A DNA stretch of 64,000 nt from a virus, in the IMG/VR virus record IMGVR_UViG_3300034072_001149, positions 1-64,000 of that record, one strand, 5' to 3'. The translations under genes and the position numbers were made by a program. Within the stretch, counting starts at the first letter, position 1. Every line of letters begins with the position of its first letter. This document shows, in pieces, positions 5,320-49,913 of the stretch. The notes beneath the pieces were generated by a model. That model was not told where the DNA came from and did no database searches. It worked only from the letters and a program-made list of their open reading frames with translations.

Positions 5320-6159
5320 TTATAGTCGGTTGCCAGGGATCTGCTCAGGTAGCGCAGTCATCAGACCGTTAGCCTGTGTTGCGTTGTCGAAACGAACAGT
5401 CAGCGTGATTGTCTGGAAACCGGATTCTGCATAATCCAGATCCATGTAATCAACGTTCTCTAGGAAGCAACCTTCAAGAGTCCATGTTTCAACCACAGTG
5501 TCGTTGCCGCCATCCATGGTTTCAATAATGGTCACAAACTTGTAGTTAATACCCGAAGCAAACGCAGTCTGTTCAAAGTGGTTCAGCTGCTTCTGAACCT
5601 GATGACCTACTAGCTTTGCCACGTTGTTGGTCAAGTCATCCTTTAGTGTAATCTGGATGCTGTCCCACTTGTGCTTACCAGCATAGTAGGCGGTTGAGTT
5701 GTAGCTGTGGACTTCGATTGGATCATGATTGATCTTTGGCTTGGTAACTGTGGCAACCTGCTGGGTGAAATCAAGACCACCAGCGATTGGACCAAAGTTG
5801 ACCACGCGAACGCGGAAGCGATACTTGTACTTGAGCTGGAGAAGACCGCCACGGCCTGCCCCGCCACCGAGTGGAACCATTAACATTCAGCCAGTGTCGT
5901 TAATACTGACCCGCCTTACGGCTGCTCATTGTTACCAATGAGATTAGACTATATCATGACCCACTTAGGGGCCCCACCCGTTTCAGCCCACTTGGGCCTA
6001 CGACCTTTCGGTCTAGTCGTTGAACGTTCCGGTTCATAACACCGGCTTCGCTGCTGATTGTCCCTGAGGGATTTCCCAGCAATTAGAGTGGTTTTTCGAC
6101 TAGGATTACTCCTAGAAGCAGCTATTCCATTAACCGAACTTGCTTAGAGTTTCTGCCAT
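5320..6159 (-). CDS. Tail tube protein (T4 gp19-like), spliced: join(6159..6133, 5877..5320)
   Basis: GGAGGTG RBS plus ATG at 6159 gives MAETLSKFG. Joining to GTT at 5877 gives MAETLSKFG|VPLGGGAGRGGLLQLKYKYRFRV (194 aa), with tube motifs YAGKHKW, WTLEGCF and LDY. Confidence 0.88.
5878..6132 (-). mobile_element. Group I self-splicing intron (IA-like, no ORF), 255 nt
   Basis: Exon ends in U and intron ends in G. P (AAUUGCUGGGAAA), Q (AAUCAGCAG), R (GUUCAACGACUAG) and S (GAUAUAGUCU) are present. P7 is GACUA/UAGUC, P7.1 and P7.2 hairpins are present, and P10 is UGGAAU pairing with exon-2 GUUCCA. Confidence 0.93.
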
Positions 6160-6256
6160 GATTTTATCACCTCCTAGGTAACGATCTATTTTGATTATTT
6201 ATCGTTACAGGTTGTAAATAGATGTGAGTAGAAACTTTTAGAAGATTTGGGGTCCA

Positions 6257-7057
6257 ATGTTTTATGTCTATGTTTTGTGTGATCCAAGAAGAGCTGATAA
6301 ACCCTTCTATGTTGGCAAGGGATCGCGAGACAGATGTAGGTATCATTTGAATGAGACCTACCAAAATACAAGCAATCGGCGCAAATGGTGTAAAATCGCA
6401 GCCATCAAAAAATCTGGTCTCGAAGTTACCATTAAAAAGATCAAAGAAGATTTATCAGAGACTGATGCCTATGAATTGGAAGAACTTCTAATCAAAAAAT
6501 ATGGCCGTATTGGATATGACCCAGGTGGCATACTAACTAATATCTGCGAATCTTCGCGCCCACCCTCTGCCAAAGGCAGGATTATATCAGAGAACACTCG
6601 TAAGAAGCATAGCGAGCGACAACTGGGGCCTTTGAATCATCGTTACGGAGTTAAGATGTCAGAGGAGGATAAAGAACACAGACGTCAATTCAATCTAAAA
6701 CATGGCATTAGACCGCCGGACCGAACCGGTATTCCTCACAAGGAAGAAACAAAAGCCAAGATGAGTTTAGCCAGCAAGGGAAGAAAAAAGAGTCCAGAAC
6801 ATTGTAAAGCTATTGGAGACGCACGACGAGGTAAGCCTCTAGGGCCTTGCCCTTCCGAACGAGCCAAAAAGATTGCTGAAGCTCAATATCGTCACTATGA
6901 ATTGACTAGTCCAGAAGGAAAAGTGTATCAAGTCAATACAGGACGTCTAAAGGAAATGATCAAGACGTTTGGCTGGTCATATGGCTCACTTATGGCTGCT
7001 AAGAAAGCTGGTAGAAATTACCAAGGTTGGAGTATTATAGATTTAGGTAGAGTCTAG
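6257..7057 (+). CDS. Free-standing GIY-YIG (LEM-3-like) homing endonuclease with NUMOD3 repeats
   Basis: FYVYVL...PFYVGKG...R...E...GILTN, followed by H(S/K)EETKAKMS-type repeats. Confidence 0.88.
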   Translation: MFYVYVLCDPRRADKPFYVGKGSRDRCRYHLNETYQNTSNRRKWCKIAAIKKSGLEVTIKKIKEDLSETDAYELEELLIKKYGRIGYDPGGILTNICESSRPPSAKGRIISENTRKKHSERQLGPLNHRYGVKMSEEDKEHRRQFNLKHGIRPPDRTGIPHKEETKAKMSLASKGRKKSPEHCKAIGDARRGKPLGPCPSERAKKIAEAQYRHYELTSPEGKVYQVNTGRLKEMIKTFGWSYGSLMAAKKAGRNYQGWSIIDLGRV

Positions 7058-11178: not shown

Positions 11179-13593
11179 TTAGTTAAACAGTGCGCCTAGA
11201 TCGTCGCCGGTCGCAACGATACGAACTGGAATGTAGATGAATTCAATTGCCTGGACTGGCTGAATAGCAATATCCACCCAAAGTTCCTGACGATCAATTC
11301 TCTCCGGAGTGTTGTTGGTTTCATCGCAAACTACGATGAAGTCATACAAGCCGCGGAGACCTACGAGGTCTGCTAGAAAGCGCTCGAAGGTTGTTCGAAC
11401 AGAGTCACGTGTCTGGAAGTCGTTTGGCTCAAAGAGAAACGGCTTACTGATATTATCCAAGTTGTAGCGTAGGTAGTTGACCAAACGAGCAACGTTGATA
11501 CGATCAAGAGAAGTTTCTAGACTGTGGCGCGTTTTCTGACCATAAACAACCAGACCGCGATTTGGAATAAACGCGATTGGGTTGATCTTGTTGGAATACA
11601 GGATATCACGCTGGCCAGGGTTCAAAATAGCAGCCTTGAATTCACCTTCTTCGTCAAGGTATCCAACGCTAGAAGCGTTATTGACCAGACCACGAGTGAA
11701 ACCAGCAGGAGCCAACCAAGGATAGCTGATGCTATCGCTGTAAGCCAATGTTCTAAGAGCAATGGTCGATGGTGGAACCATGATCTCATTACCATCAACG
11801 TTGGTGCTCAAGCCCCAAGGATAATACATACCAACATATGGGTTGAAAGTGCTAACTCCATTTTCGGTATTACCGTTACCTGAATTTGTAGCAAATTCAG
11901 TGATATCTGCTCCAGTTGGCTTCAGTCTAATAGGAGTGTCACCAACAATAAACGCTACTTCCTTCATGTCCGTGTTCAAAGTAACCATCTCATCGATGAG
12001 TTCAATGTAACCAGGAGCAGCTAGGAGGTTGAAGTAAACTGTTTCAGCACGAATATCTTCATTACCCGAAATAGTAGCAGCAAGCGACTTAACGATCATC
12101 TGACGCTGAGCACGGCGACCAAAGAATGGAACACCATTGGTCTGGAAGCCTGAAACGTTTGACCACTTACCAGCCGAAGCATTATATTGCTTGACGTCGT
12201 TGGTAGACTCAGCCAAGTCGAATAGTCTCATACCTTCAGCATAGTTGAGCGGCTCAGTAGTGTCAGCTTCACCAAAAGCGATACCGTCGATTGGGTCAAT
12301 GTTGTTCTCAACATTGATAGCTTTCCAAAGACCGCCAACTCGACGATACATCTTAGGATAGTTCTCAAGATCGGAAGTATCAACCCAAAGGTCGTTTTCA
12401 ACCAGTGGAGCACCAGTAGACTGAACAGTAGGAGCCGATCCTAGAAGGATTACACCATTTGCGTCAGTTGCTGGATAAACAGTGCGATATGGACGCCATT
12501 CACCGCCTTGGTTTACCTTGACATTGACAACCAAATTCTGGTTGTTGAACCAAAGCGTGCCGTCATCAGCAGTGTTGGTTGGTTCAGAAGCGCCAGCTTC
12601 TTCACCAAGTGGCTCCCAGACGTCAGTGTTTTCGTTATAACGCAGGAATTCAAAAACAGCGCGAGTGTCTTCGTGGCTCAGGAATACTGATCCAGCAACT
12701 CTGGTTAGAGTGTTGACCTTAGACAGGCTGTAGATAGGAACAAGCGTTTCAGCCCAAACACCGGTGCCAACATTATATGTCTTCAACAGCCAAGTTGCTG
12801 CTGCGCTGATGCTAGTGATAACGTCTGGTGTGTTGAGAACCAATACGTCACCAATGTTACCAGTTGCTGGACGGAAAGTGCCATACTTTAGTTCAAGCGA
12901 TGCCGAAGAACCTTCAGCAACCTTGGCAGTTTTCCATTCAGGAGTTCCAACAACAAACCATTCATCAGCAATACGCTGGTAAAGGACCTTCTTTGAATAT
13001 AGGACCACCATGGCAAAATCACCATCAGCGGAATCAACTAGAAGAGGAACCTTCTGGCCAGCAATGATTTCTGGTGCCGCACTATCAAGGGACGATTCGT
13101 CTTCTACGATCCAAAGATCGCGTTCTGTCCATTCGCTACCGGTGTATTCATAGATACCCCATGTGTTGTTCTGGGTATCAAGCCAGTTCGTGCCATTGGT
13201 AGCTTCAGCACGTGGCTCAGAGGCCTGTGGCATTAGCTGACCGTAGTCGATCGCAGCACGAATAACAAAGGCACGGTTAGCAATACCAAGATACTGGTAA
13301 GCAGCATGAAGACCGTATTCGTTGAGTTCGTAACCATGAACGGCAGAGCCATTTCTGGTGTAGAAAATTGGGTTGCCAAACGTCTGGAGGAGTTCGCGCT
13401 GGCTCGTGATAGGGTAGAGCTTGTTCGCGTTCTCGGGCAAGGTGCCTTCGGCCACGCCGCTACCCGAAGGCAGTGACTTGAATTCGTGCGTGCCGATAAT
13501 AATCAGCGGAACAGTGCCTTCACCAGCCGTTGCGTAGTTGGATTCGTCGGTAACGGTAACAGATGTACCGGGCGACACTAGAGGATATACCAT
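11179..13593 (-). CDS. gp18: Tail sheath protein (T4 gp18-like) with large insertion
   Basis: LVSPGTSVTV, ITSQRELLQTFG, PWLAPAGFTRG, GQKT, LDRINVARL, FEPND and EFIYIP motifs. Confidence 0.95.
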   Translation of the reverse strand: MVYPLVSPGTSVTVTDESNYATAGEGTVPLIIIGTHEFKSLPSGSGVAEGTLPENANKLYPITSQRELLQTFGNPIFYTRNGSAVHGYELNEYGLHAAYQYLGIANRAFVIRAAIDYGQLMPQASEPRAEATNGTNWLDTQNNTWGIYEYTGSEWTERDLWIVEDESSLDSAAPEIIAGQKVPLLVDSADGDFAMVVLYSKKVLYQRIADEWFVVGTPEWKTAKVAEGSSASLELKYGTFRPATGNIGDVLVLNTPDVITSISAAATWLLKTYNVGTGVWAETLVPIYSLSKVNTLTRVAGSVFLSHEDTRAVFEFLRYNENTDVWEPLGEEAGASEPTNTADDGTLWFNNQNLVVNVKVNQGGEWRPYRTVYPATDANGVILLGSAPTVQSTGAPLVENDLWVDTSDLENYPKMYRRVGGLWKAINVENNIDPIDGIAFGEADTTEPLNYAEGMRLFDLAESTNDVKQYNASAGKWSNVSGFQTNGVPFFGRRAQRQMIVKSLAATISGNEDIRAETVYFNLLAAPGYIELIDEMVTLNTDMKEVAFIVGDTPIRLKPTGADITEFATNSGNGNTENGVSTFNPYVGMYYPWGLSTNVDGNEIMVPPSTIALRTLAYSDSISYPWLAPAGFTRGLVNNASSVGYLDEEGEFKAAILNPGQRDILYSNKINPIAFIPNRGLVVYGQKTRHSLETSLDRINVARLVNYLRYNLDNISKPFLFEPNDFQTRDSVRTTFERFLADLVGLRGLYDFIVVCDETNNTPERIDRQELWVDIAIQPVQAIEFIYIPVRIVATGDDLGALFN

Positions 13594-47272: not shown

Positions 47273-47496
47273 GGCTCTTGGGGACTCCACCTGAAGATGT
47301 GCCGCTGATTCTTCAGGAATATGTGGACGAAGCAAGAGCCCTTGAATCACAATTGATACAGATAGCTTTTTATATGCGAGGAGGTTGTCCACTGGATCAA
47401 GCTTACAAGCTAACAAATAACCAGAGGAAGAGCACCCTAAAGTTCATTGAAGAGAATATCGAGAGAACCAACAAAACTGGCATTATGATGCACTAA
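47260..47496 (+). CDS. -1 frame extension of the upstream chaperone (putative frameshift product)
   Basis: Slippery T TTT TTC at 47260-47266. The -1 frame is open into ORF 47278..47496 (YMRGG), which has no RBS. Confidence 0.6.
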   Translation, partial: FFRLRLLGTPPEDVPLILQEYVDEARALESQLIQIAFYMRGGCPLDQAYKLTNNQRKSTLKFIEENIERTNKTGIMMH

Positions 47497-47909
47497 AGGG
47501 AGCCAGTTTCCAGAAAAATACCTGCTAGATTGGAGTTGCGACTTACATGGCAAAACTCAAGATCAAGACCCTGAGAGACCTCCTTGAACTTCTTGAACAG
47601 GTCGATAAGCAATTGGTTATTGATCTTCCAAAGACCGGAAGCCTGATTGATAACCAGCTGACTGTCACCAAAAATGACAGCCTTTTGAACGCCATTGTCT
47701 TTGGCCCAAATAACAGCCCAGATCAACGCTGACCATTCCGCCACATTATTAGTTCCCTGCCCGAGATCTTTCATTGTGAGTGCTTGAGGTTTTTCATTAT
47801 CCCTGCAGATGACGATACATGAACTCATTCGTCCTGGGTTGGGTGAACAGCCGCCGTCGAAGTAGATCTTTATTTCAGGGCCATAACGGGCAAAATCAGA
47901 ATTATCCAT
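47493..47909 (-). CDS. rnhA: Ribonuclease HI
   Basis: IYFDGGCSPNPG, TNNVAEW, GDSQLVINQ and HVSRNSN motifs. Confidence 0.9.
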   Translation of the reverse strand: MDNSDFARYGPEIKIYFDGGCSPNPGRMSSCIVICRDNEKPQALTMKDLGQGTNNVAEWSALIWAVIWAKDNGVQKAVIFGDSQLVINQASGLWKINNQLLIDLFKKFKEVSQGLDLEFCHVSRNSNLAGIFLETGSL

Positions 47910-47949
47910 TCCTAATACTAATCAATCAGTCATGGAATCGTCAATCTCT

Positions 47950-48240
47950 TCATGGGCTCTAGCCCATTGGCTTCACCTTCAGCTTGCTTTGCTGCGCTGA
48001 AGGACAAACGTGATTACACTCGCTGTTACTCGTGAATCACGTTTGTATTAGGTTTGAAGTAGAGTTCTGGATTGTTGAGTAAAAAGCAGAATTACGATCT
48101 ATATTCTCCTCGAACATTATCATTGGAATTGGTTACTCAGGACGAACTAATGATTAACAAAGCACTGAGCTTTCTGGCATTGCCAGAATAGCGAAGTAGG
48201 ACTTTGCGAGTGTGAGCTTGCGAGCGCGAGTAAAGGCCTC
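47950..48240. other. Cluster of imperfect hairpins with CGAG/GCGAG motifs (possible primosome/ssi-type origin element)
   Basis: ccttcagc..gctgaagg, acaaacgtgatt..aatcacgtttgt and tttgcgagtgtgagcttgcgagcgcgagtaaag. Confidence 0.4.
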
Positions 48241-48780
48241 TTGACCTTTGGAACTTTGGCTGAACTCTGTATCCAATCGTTCAGTCACACTGACTTCCCC
48301 CGTTTCCGGGAGAAGTTCAAAAATGAATAGAATCTATAGATTTAAGGGATTCACACAATATGACTGGCGTGGACAGTTCAGAGGATCCTAGGTCTGCCAT
48401 TATATCCTGCACCTTTTCAGTGCTCACTGCCGCTTCTGTGTAATCGGTCTCCAGCTGGAGTACCTTTCCACACAGGACGGTCGGTAGTTCGTTACGCTAC
48501 CACTCAACATCTCCATTGCTCACGCCAGCGGCTCCGGAGACTTGCTCGTTTCTTTTCAAAACGAGTCTAGTCTTTGACTAGGGCGTCCCACTCTTTGGAG
48601 AGCGAGGGACCTGCCTAGATTTCCAGGACGTTGCCGAAGCCATCTCCAGATCCATTCGAGATCCGTTGAAGTTCCTCTGGGGTTTAGCACGTAGCCACTT
48701 TCCCAGCCCATGGTCGCCGCCCAATACAGCGCTCTCCGGGGGTTCGAGGGCATGATCTGCGCCTCCACTGCCTTATCTTT
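48240..48780 (-). ncRNA. Large ornate structured RNA
   Basis: GC-elevated with no credible ORF. GAAA/GUAA tetraloops on the minus strand. Long-range pairs 48364-48371 with 48521-48528 and 48379-48385 with 48673-48679. Confidence 0.6.
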
Positions 48781-48828
48781 CTCATACTTCAGTTTCCAAA
48801 CACTGATAAATAAGTATGTAAAGGACGG

Positions 48829-48861
48829 GTATATTATTGGGTGGTAGTATATTATTGGGTG
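48829..48861. repeat. 15-bp direct repeat gtatattattgggtg x2
   Basis: Copies at 48829-48843 and 48847-48861 within a G/T-skewed tract. Confidence 0.9.
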
Positions 48862-48920
48862 TTTTTAGGCGTTTAAGTGTTTAGGTGATCGCCTGGTGGC
48901 TCAAATCGTTCTTAGTGTAT

Positions 48921-48970
48921 GGGCCCCGGTTGGAACTTCCAGTTCCTCCGGGGCTCTTTGTTTTTGTTTT
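48921..48970 (+). terminator. Terminator of a short plus-strand transcript
   Basis: gggccccgg...ccggggctc followed by tttgtttttgtttt. Confidence 0.65.
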
Positions 48971-49103
48971 GTGTCTAGGGGCTATAAAGTAGAATCTGTA
49001 ACAATCCTCTTGTGGGATATTTAGTACACAGATTAGACCAATTTAGTGGTCTCGATTCAGCTACATCTGATTATCGATCTGGGTGACAACCAAAATCACC
49101 CTT

Positions 49104-49913
49104 TTAGAAGTTTTCTTCTTTCATCGAAACAAGAATACACCCACTTCTGGGGCTCTTTACTCTTTGATCCTTTATCCAGTATGGTACCTTACTGTGCTTG
49201 ATGTCAACAAACCAGGTTTCTTTTTCTGTATTCTCCGTGCCAAAAACATAACGTAGAAAGATCAGATTCCAGCGATGATCTGATTCCAAATCATAACCCT
49301 TGATTACAATTGGATTCTTGGAGTATGAGGTATAAAGGTAAGTTAGATCGGATTCTTTTACATACTCCACCTTTGTCAAAGTCTTCCTAGGAATTTGAAG
49401 ACATTGTCTGTTGGTATCGTATTTGCTTAATAGTTTGATCGGTCCAGAGTAGACATCTTTCCTCAACGCTTTGGCTGCTTGAAGCTTATAAAAATCCAAA
49501 AGGACTCGGGCCATGCTCTTTTTTACCTGGGGGTCAATCCTAGCTGGTTTGGCTGGTAGATCCAACAGATACAAAAGCTTTTCACTTAGAAAGCGATTGC
49601 CCTGAGAATTTTTACCAAGGATCATCCTACGATGTGGTTGAAGATGATTTGGCAATACCGGTTCAGAGGAATCGTTAAAGTATGGCTTTAGTGACATCCC
49701 AGACTCTGCTAGCGTTTCCCAAAGACTAACCCAATCTTTATGAAGAGAAACCAAAAGTTCAGGACAAGACCGGACCCTAGAATTCAATCCTTCTACCAGA
49801 GAATTATAATAGCCTATCTCTTGCTTTATAAACCCTTTGTAAAGAGCAGCATCGGTAGAAGCTAGATCAATCATAATACTCAAATCACGAAATTTAGCTT
49901 TCACAATCAACAC
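49104..49913 (-). CDS. Protein resembling the WED/REC half of TnpB/Cas12f, lacking RuvC
   Basis: R-DLSIMI-(22 aa)-YYN, IDPQVKKSMARVLLDFYK, PIKLLSK..RQCLQIP and TWFVDI occur in TnpB-like order. No GIDLG follows. Confidence 0.45.
   Translation of the reverse strand: MLIVKAKFRDLSIMIDLASTDAALYKGFIKQEIGYYNSLVEGLNSRVRSCPELLVSLHKDWVSLWETLAESGMSLKPYFNDSSEPVLPNHLQPHRRMILGKNSQGNRFLSEKLLYLLDLPAKPARIDPQVKKSMARVLLDFYKLQAAKALRKDVYSGPIKLLSKYDTNRQCLQIPRKTLTKVEYVKESDLTYLYTSYSKNPIVIKGYDLESDHRWNLIFLRYVFGTENTEKETWFVDIKHSKVPYWIKDQRVKSPRSGCILVSMKEENF

Follow-up and report, generated by a model that had tools for sequence, protein, structure and literature searches.

Genomic setting of the locus

The window (i.e. 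the whole stretch of DNA analysed here, which corresponds to the initial 64 kb of an IMG/VR virus record with a length of 159.2 kb and an estimated completeness of 34%) contains, between two minus-strand genes, a 1.2-kb gap that is free of open reading frames (47910-49103). The gene upstream of the gap encodes a protein of 269 residues (p269), to which no Pfam or PHROG family was assigned; the downstream one encodes an RNase HI (rnhA; Table 1), just past which lies a plus-strand gene for a RusA-like/PDDEXK resolvase. As the baseplate hub shares 45-48% identity with its counterparts in Agrobacterium phage Atu_ph07 (490 kb) and in Sinorhizobium phage Phosso (469 kb), we regard the record as a fragment of an Atu_ph07/Phosso-like jumbo phage. 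Within the gap, a first-pass annotation of the letters had placed an unclassified pseudoknotted RNA at 48240-48780, a location that overlaps the conserved block delineated here, although the latter (~48828 to 48281) is situated slightly upstream.

Table 1. Features of the RNA locus and of its flanking genes, in window coordinates (an RNA position p corresponds to window coordinate 48829-p)
Feature	Coordinates	Strand	Basis
RNase HI gene (rnhA)	47493..47909	-	Pfam RNase_H/RVT_3, PHROG 531
Hairpin-rich, poorly conserved spacer down to rnhA start	47910..48280	-	alignment
Conserved structured RNA block, ~548 nt (RNA positions 1-548)	48281..48828	-	nhmmer and MAFFT, 12 homologues
P15 (UCAUAUUG/CAGUGUGA, clade A only) around P16	48285..48363	-	alignment
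P16 hairpin CUUCUCCCG-GAAA-CGGGGGAAG	48294-48315	-	86% paired across clades
PK1, P9-loop strand CUGGCGUG (48528-48521) with CACGCCAG (48371-48364)	48364..48528	-	paired 12/12
Rfam EGFOA (RF02955) match, model positions 1-108	48370..48512	-	35.9 bits (cut-off 37.7)
Core helices P12 (GGCAGU/ACUGUC), P13 (GCAC/GUGC), P14 (AGGAU/AUCCU)	48372..48431	-	pairing and covariation
PK2, GUC-c-UGU (48478-48472) with GCAGAC (48397-48392) in P14 loop	48392..48478	-	covariation
P10 hairpin GGUAG-CGUAACGAA-CUACC	48483..48501	-	variants
P9 hairpin GUCUCC/GGAGAU, loop with invariant GCCGCUGG..UGAGC	48509..48541	-	covariation
P8 hairpin CUCGUUUU-GAAAA-GAAACGAG	48545..48565	-	6/8 pairs change on both sides
GACUAG, with CUAG (48567-48570) invariant in 12/12	48567..48572	-	alignment
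P6 (CUAGG/CCUAG) around P6a (GUCCC/GGGAC)	48578..48618	-	P6 paired 12/12
5' domain: P2 (loop AGAUCAU), P3/P3a, P4, P5/P5a/P5b; clade A and L106	48625..48765	-	covariation in P4, P5, P5a
P1 hairpin CAUACUU/AAGUAUG, 5' end of block in clade A	48783..48818	-	compensatory variants
p269, 269 aa, predicted WED+REC TnpB/Cas12f-like, without nuclease domain	49104..49913	-	predicted fold

Homologues and conservation

A blastn search of 50,697 phage records with the sequence of the gap returned no match, and the corresponding Phosso region matched Phosso only. Further copies were found by means of short invariant motifs common to the window and Phosso, and were confirmed with nhmmer; a 14-mer scan of genome contigs (GTAAAGCTAGACCT) produced 120 loci, all of which were chance matches. 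The resulting set comprises 12 distinct copies (that of the window included), 11 of them in other jumbo-phage genomes, among which is that of the cultured Phosso; except for two short metagenome fragments, the contigs or records that carry them all measure 100-480 kb. The copies split into a window-like clade (clade A, n = 7), a Phosso-like clade (clade B, n = 4) and one outlier (L106). The segment from P6 to P16 (~330 nt, 48618-48294) is common to all clades, and the 5' 200 nt are clade-specific. The gene order recurs in Phosso, where an unannotated gap of 1 kb precedes the RNase HI gene, and rnhA is found downstream on the same strand in 10 out of 10 genomes whose fetched DNA extends to it (the loci L014 and L020 stop before rnhA, hence 10 of the 12 genomes were scored). 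When the window is compared to its close relative L005, nucleotide identity amounts to 87% in the RNA, as against 79% for rnhA, 77% for the PDDEXK resolvase and 63% for p269, and by this measure the RNA is shown to be under stronger purifying selection than the neighbouring genes.

A structured RNA transcribed from the minus strand

The flagged 541-nt stretch folds on the minus strand with -201.7 kcal/mol (z -5.43; 0 of 100 dinucleotide shuffles as good), while the plus strand attains a z of only -2.33. On the 12-sequence alignment (MAFFT) we laid out, from per-clade RNAalifold predictions and inspection, a structure of 23 helices and 119 pairs, in which 82.0% of the cells hold standard pairs, compared to 70.5% with shuffled partners (0/500 as high); as a control, sliding the partners by 1-3 columns lowered the pairing to 39-44%. 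Covariation among homologues, for which the first-pass annotation had proposed to look, is present as well: 63 pairs are doubly changed, where shuffling leads one to expect 39.6 (0/500 shuffles as high). Within a 124-column core, pairing reaches 90.9% (75.8% when shuffled) and 14 of 23 pairs are doubly changed. All of these figures are lower bounds, since in the Phosso clade MAFFT places a number of helices 1-2 columns out of register. About 20 helices are backed by compensatory changes.

In the clade that aligns well, 65 G.U pairs stand against 12 A.C pairs, from which it follows that the minus strand is the RNA strand. The same asymmetry argues against a DNA-level element (origin hairpins or a packaging site), a reading to which the inverted repeats of this gene-free region could lend some credit, but which is also at odds with the long-range and pseudoknotted covarying pairs and with an RNA-family match that falls on one strand only; we give it hardly any credence, less than any other alternative considered here. 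A coding reading was rejected since no reading frame is conserved (the stop-to-stop frames span 63 to 106 aa, none of them common to the homologues). Judged by comparative sequence analysis, the flagged stretch is a real, conserved and doubly knotted non-coding RNA of ~550 bases on the minus strand, and the earlier proposal of a large, pseudoknotted, non-coding minus-strand RNA is supported by fold, covariation and strand asymmetry alike.

Secondary structure and pseudoknots

The 5' domain is characterized by helices that vary in sequence while they retain their pairing: P1 occurs also as CAUACCU/AGGUAUG, CACUUC/GAAGUG and CAUAUG/CAUAUG, P4 as CUGGG/CCCAG, CUGGU/ACCAG and UCGGG/CCCGA, P5 as AGGAC/GUCCU or GCACC/GGUGC, and P5a as GGAUC/GAUCU, GGACC/GGUCU and GGUCC/GGACU. 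Towards the core, P9 is represented by GACUCC/GGAGUU, GCUUCC/GGAAGC, CCCAUCUC/GAGAUGGG and CCCGCUAC/GUAGUGGG, and P10 by GGUUG/CAACC, GGGAG/CUUCC and UGAAG/CUUCA. The core helices P12, P13 and P14 are paired in 100%, 77% and 100%, with changes on both sides in 4, 3 and 4 pairs, respectively.

All the strings quoted by the first-pass annotation were located on the minus strand by string search, and two of its three hairpins are retained in our structure. The one given as CUCGUUUU-GAAA-AGAAACGAG (48565-48545) is P8, which covaries strongly among the 12 homologues (e.g. CUCGCCUU/GAGGCGAG and CUAUCUAU/GUAGAUAG), and the one with arms CUUCUCCCG and CGGGGGAAG (48315-48294) is the conserved P16. The third, CUAGUC-AAA-GACUAG (48581-48567), forms all six of its pairs in one clade only and competes with the better-supported and covarying P6 (variants CUAAG/UUUAG and CAAAG/CUUUG); its 3' arm, GACUAG, may be free for tertiary or intermolecular contact.

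The long-range helix CUGGCGUG/CACGCCAG, likewise put forward in the annotation, is paired at 100% in 12/12 copies and shows compensatory changes (both-side changes in 2 of 8 pairs; variants CUGGUGUG/CACACCAG and CUGGUAUG/CAUGCCAG). This helix (PK1), whose partner strands lie 150 nt apart, crosses P9 and surrounds a core that resembles EGFOA RNAs (see below). The second pseudoknot, PK2, whose GUC-c-UGU strand immediately precedes the core, has its last pair changed from U.G to A-U in clade B (the Phosso clade); family-wide, it occurs as GUC-c-UAG/CUAGAC, GUC-c-GUG/CACGAC and, in shifted form, GU-c-GUAG/CUACAC, so that its variable positions read UGU/GCA, UGA/UCA, UAG/CUA or GUG/CAC. The comparative data thereby support a core that holds two pseudoknots, PK1 and PK2, and they replace the crossing that had been proposed between CCGGAGA/UCUCCGG (48739-48733 with 48540-48534; 48% of cells paired) and CAGAGGA/UCCUCUG (48679-48673 with 48385-48379; 56%): that pseudoknot falls, because its two helices are broken even in the close relatives L005 and L021. 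The RNA also carries three invariant palindromic CUAG elements, and palindromic loops give no covariation signal, since they are invariant; a third pseudoknot, between one invariant CUAG and another, would comprise only 4 possible pairs without covariation, and we treat it as a guess.

A divergent relative of EGFOA RNAs

At gathering thresholds, the only Rfam match in the window is a group I intron located outside the flagged stretch. Between 47400 and 49400, a search with E-values up to 10 found no group I/II intron, RNase P, tmRNA, ROOL, GOLLD, OLE or raiA RNA, and ARAGORN had no match at the locus, in agreement with the earlier remark that intron, RNase P and tmRNA signatures are missing. 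That annotation had also named the absence of an Rfam match as a sign of novelty; the permissive search gave one meaningful match, which placed EGFOA (RF02955) on the centre of the RNA (E 2.4e-4 in 2 kb, 4.5e-6 per genome), with a score of 35.9 bits that remains below the family's gathering cut-off of 37.7 bits. EGFOA is the best match at the homologous spot in 12/12 genomes, a result that contradicts the description of the RNA as unclassified; the scores of the relatives (27.2-37.5 bits; Phosso 29) all lie below the cut-off too. The whole genome of Atu_ph07 yielded no EGFOA match.

EGFOAs are putative small RNAs that occur in unusually large gene-free regions (RF02955); they are not named in the main text of Weinberg 2017. 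In our searches, canonical EGFOAs were recovered from a phage contig (68.9 bits), from 4 of 93 Paenibacillus genomes (60-77 bits) and from 1 of 151 other Bacillota (63.8 bits). The likeness extends to the order of the elements (an outer helix, a small hairpin, CCGUCC, a variable hairpin, P12 around two hairpins, and AGACCU in the last loop): the invariant EGFOA blocks CCGUCc and AGACCU are found at the right places in the jumbo-phage RNA, GACCGUCCUG and CAGACCUAG are invariant in 12/12 homologues and align with upper-case positions of the model, and the model pairs 52-59/101-108, 62-65/71-74 and 75-79/93-97 have their counterparts in P12, P13 and P14. A hairpin like P10 is present at the equivalent place in the Paenibacillus EGFOAs, both groups have a small hairpin before CCGUCC, and both possess PK2, a pseudoknot deduced here from the sequences, in which GUCc... 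pairs with the loop of the last hairpin. As PK2 covaries between the jumbo-phage RNAs and canonical EGFOAs of 60-77 bits, it constitutes the strongest argument for common descent. The setting is similar as well, for canonical EGFOAs, too, occupy extended, conserved tracts of mobile elements that hold no genes (gaps of this kind are seen in the window, 1.2 kb, and likewise in Phosso, L230 and Paenibacillus).

The two groups also differ. Scores here range over 27-37.5 bits against a cut-off of 37.7, the first hairpin of the jumbo-phage RNA bears a 28-nt insertion, PK1, which crosses P9, encloses its core as a second pseudoknot, and the core is flanked by ~290 nt of covarying 5' helices and by an 80-nt 3' domain, and the conserved unit measures ~550 nt as opposed to ~110-130 nt. 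The carriers here are jumbo phages, whose relatives in culture infect Rhizobiaceae. In the reverse direction, a covariance model of the jumbo-phage core (R1) found no more than one canonical EGFOA, at 14.6 bits and E 0.23. A 19-bit R1 match in Atu_ph07 lies inside an annotated coding sequence (gp637) and was taken as chance; a manA match downstream of the RNA in L014 (20.7 bits, E 0.43), absent in the window, was taken as noise. Given the weak reciprocal model, the kinship rests on one-way Rfam matches together with the pseudoknot covariation, and for the same reason we describe the RNA as EGFOA-type, divergent and enlarged, without counting it among the regular members of the family.

The alternative, that the RNA belongs to a truly new class and that the EGFOA resemblance reflects convergence or chance in a 140-nt segment, could draw on the uniformly sub-threshold scores, on this weak reciprocal search and on the three quarters of the conserved block that have no counterpart in the Rfam model. 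Against it stand full-length matches at one homologous position in 12/12 copies, CCGUCC and AGACCU blocks and a helix order identical to those of EGFOA, and a pseudoknot that covaries across both groups, by reason of which we hold a new class to be highly improbable. We consider that the centre of the RNA is, on these comparative grounds, a divergent and enlarged relative of EGFOA, and hence a large new variant instead of a new class. Moreover, since canonical copies are embedded in long conserved non-coding stretches, the 108-position EGFOA model may in general cover just the core of larger RNAs.

Relation to the upstream gene p269

The AlphaFold2 model of p269 (pLDDT 80.9) has, by prediction, the WED+REC half of a TnpB/Cas12f-like protein and ends where RuvC would start; its ~40 best-ranked Foldseek matches belong to Cas12f, TnpB, other Cas12 types and Fanzor (mostly at probabilities of 0.5-0.99, with TM 0.25-0.39). 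Such a neighbour brings omega-RNAs to mind, i.e. the RNAs of TnpB/IscB, which include former orphan motifs such as RAGATH-18 (PMC11061315), and the RNA studied here indeed resembles them in being structured and in following a TnpB-like gene on the same strand, an arrangement found in 8 of 12 genomes. It might on this account be an omega-RNA-like guide or scaffold of the nuclease-less p269. The association, though, breaks in both directions, which makes the RNA independent of p269: the RNA is present and p269 absent in the complete genomes of Phosso and G096, and L096 retains p269 and rnhA but has an unrelated ORF-free sequence and an HNH gene in the RNA slot. Furthermore, p269 is followed immediately after its stop codon by a conserved element of its own, and the window and L014 agree in 98% of the RNA but in no more than 57% of the residues of p269. 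The RNA is also much larger than an omega-RNA scaffold, and no guide-like variable 3' end was found. A search for related loci that took p269 as its query found no relatives. An obligate pairing of p269 and RNA is thus largely refuted, a guide function is very improbable indeed, and p269 is, as far as the comparison of genomes indicates, no part of the function of the RNA.

Candidate functions

A location upstream of rnhA invites the explanation that the RNA is a cis-acting leader, i.e. a long 5' UTR of the rnhA mRNA that would control its translation or stability. Strand and order are shared with rnhA throughout, hairpins run on to the rnhA start, and since the terminator scan detected no minus-strand intrinsic terminator in the spacer (47910..48280), the RNA could be the leader of that mRNA. 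Opposed to this are the spacer itself (~350 nt, poorly conserved), the canonical EGFOAs that lie upstream of unrelated genes (terL, parA, an HTH gene) or of none, and L096, which retains rnhA and in whose RNA slot another sequence is found; we rate a leader role as decidedly unlikely.

The gene neighbourhood could also speak for a replication RNA, one that would give rise to an R-loop or primer at an origin of the phage and be cut by the RNase HI encoded downstream, or that would control initiation, following the logic of ColE1 RNA II, T4 oriF or pAMbeta1. In favour of this option are the constant downstream position of rnhA, an upstream RusA-like/PDDEXK resolvase and the canonical EGFOAs of Paenibacillus, which were found on contigs of 12-40 kb with Rep/ParA/KfrA: in 2 of the 4, the RNA follows a same-strand Rep (RPA/Rep3_N) gene at a distance of ~0.8 kb and precedes parA, and in the other 2 it lies beside KfrA_N/HTH_54 or ParA-type maintenance genes. 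With the ColE1 RNA II pre-primer, the RNA shares a size of ~550 nt, extensive structure and a link to RNase H (here one of gene neighbourhood only); it differs in its pseudoknotted, sequence-invariant core and in the family members that reside away from replication genes, and the sequence reveals no sign of an origin, antisense regulator or R-loop. The remaining EGFOAs point elsewhere, namely to an RHS toxin array (the one in 1 of 151 Bacillota) and to a phage contig beside TerL and a portal gene; a primer would need no doubly pseudoknotted, sequence-invariant core, in the related phages L099 and L100, PDDEXK and rnhA are neighbours and the RNA is missing, and no GC-skew extremum falls at 48.5 kb, although skew is uninformative in a record of 159 kb. 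A replication RNA is accordingly an unlikely explanation, if the one to which we concede most among the alternatives. Among the three roles suggested in the first-pass annotation, the argument for a primer, drawn from gene context, is weak, nothing speaks for a ribozyme, and a scaffold agrees best, by analogy, with published EGFOA work.

That work consists of cryo-EM on two short EGFOA RNAs, of which one formed a trimer (with a hexamer class) and the other a strand-exchanged dimer (bioRxiv 10.64898/2026.07.01.735769). Multimers composed of RNA only have likewise been described by cryo-EM for ROOL, GOLLD and OLE (bioRxiv 10.1101/2024.12.08.627333); these are akin to the present RNA in length (several hundred nt), high degree of structure and frequent carriage by phages, but differ from it in that no Rfam match and no sequence or architectural similarity to them was seen.

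With moderate confidence, we propose that the RNA is a stand-alone, trans-acting structured non-coding RNA with a length of 550 nt or more that represents an enlarged member of the EGFOA lineage and probably serves as a self-associating scaffold or decoy for mobile elements. Under this proposal, it would act in trans as a particle with a compact fold, as opposed to extended antisense pairing, and it would probably self-associate in the manner of the two short EGFOAs studied in vitro, with the invariant CUAG/CCUAGG elements as candidate contacts and the additional 5' and 3' helices as buttresses of the core. It would offer a scaffold, or a decoy, to a partner that is important to mobile elements (phages, plasmids and toxin islands); the constant place by RNase HI and the RusA-like resolvase suggests that this partner may belong to DNA replication or recombination.

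A more far-reaching reading, which we regard as a distinctly unlikely one, is that the 110-nt EGFOA constitutes the visible tip of doubly pseudoknotted phage and plasmid RNAs of 0.5-0.7 kb that are stationed at the replication/recombination machinery, either as R-loop or origin RNAs linked to RNase HI or as multimeric platforms for replication proteins. If true, it would explain both the Rep/Par neighbours on plasmids and the rnhA and resolvase genes in jumbo phages.

To our knowledge, structured RNAs longer than ~400 nt with conserved pseudoknots are rare, and those with a role that has been worked out proved to be ribozymes, guide RNAs or RNA-only assemblies. For the RNA described here, an alignment of 12 members and a secondary structure open to testing are now available, and its presence in a cultured pair (Sinorhizobium phage Phosso and S. 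meliloti) makes experiments on deletion, expression and structure feasible. Moreover, the orphan Rfam family EGFOA is now tied to a much larger natural unit, and the occurrence of EGFOA-type RNAs on very different mobile elements narrows the range of functions that are worth testing.

The p269 gene and putative signals at the 5' end of the EGFOA-like RNA

The protein encoded by p269, the upstream neighbour of the conserved structured EGFOA-like RNA, drew about 40 top Foldseek matches, all belonging to Cas12f/TnpB/Fanzor, and its C-terminus falls at the expected RuvC start. Judged by sequence comparison, p269 is fast-evolving (57% identity between the window and L014, a related jumbo-phage locus that carries the RNA, versus 94% for the adjacent resolvase), and its conserved 3' element may be a candidate small RNA partner of p269 itself. 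Since the T-run flanking the GCCCCGG...CCGGGGC hairpin is found only on the plus strand (an arrangement kept within the clade), this hairpin would terminate a plus-strand transcript and not the p269 mRNA; such a transcript would be antisense, running out of the 5' end of the RNA. The loop of P1 (the 5' hairpin of the RNA) holds the conserved CTATTTATC, and its plus-strand reading, GATAAATAG, resembles a late promoter.

Features located in the window
Feature	Position	Strand	Remarks
gp19-like tail-tube ORF	5320-5886		group I intron directly upstream
Group I intron (RF00028)	5925-6142	-	89 bits
65-aa ORF	6167-6364		precedes the intron
GIY-YIG/NUMOD3 homing endonuclease gene	6257-7057	+	adjoins the intron
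GC-rich hairpin GCCCCGG...CCGGGGC	48923-48975		after p269; T-run 3' on plus strand only
Conserved 3' element of p269	48980-49103	-	covarying hairpin 3' of stop codon, then AGATCGATNNTCAGATGTAGCTGAATCG
p269	49104-49913	-	TnpB/Cas12f-like WED+REC protein (Foldseek)

Elsewhere in the window (region 5320-7057), the tail-tube gene is probably split by the group I intron.

Surroundings of canonical EGFOA RNAs and the p269-rnhA slot

In four Paenibacillus contigs (L235-L238) the canonical EGFOA RNAs lie in plasmid-like regions for replication and partition, with Rep RPA/Rep3_N, ParA, KfrA_N, ArdC and AbiEii nearby, and several hundred conserved non-coding bases, common to these contigs, flank the Rfam core on both sides. 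The phage contig L230 carries a 31-bp direct repeat (two copies) together with GTGC repeats (12940-13000). They lie in the gene-free region around its canonical EGFOA, which is close to the end of the contig and precedes the terminase gene, and may mark a genome terminus or an origin.

In L096, a related jumbo-phage locus, the slot between p269 and the RNase HI gene rnhA (1230-2470) holds, in place of the EGFOA-like RNA, about 700 nt of unrelated ORF-free sequence (fold z -3.05), for which the Rfam search returned no match; an HNH-endonuclease-like ORF also lies within this slot. The p269-rnhA slot seems to be a place where non-coding cargo is exchanged.
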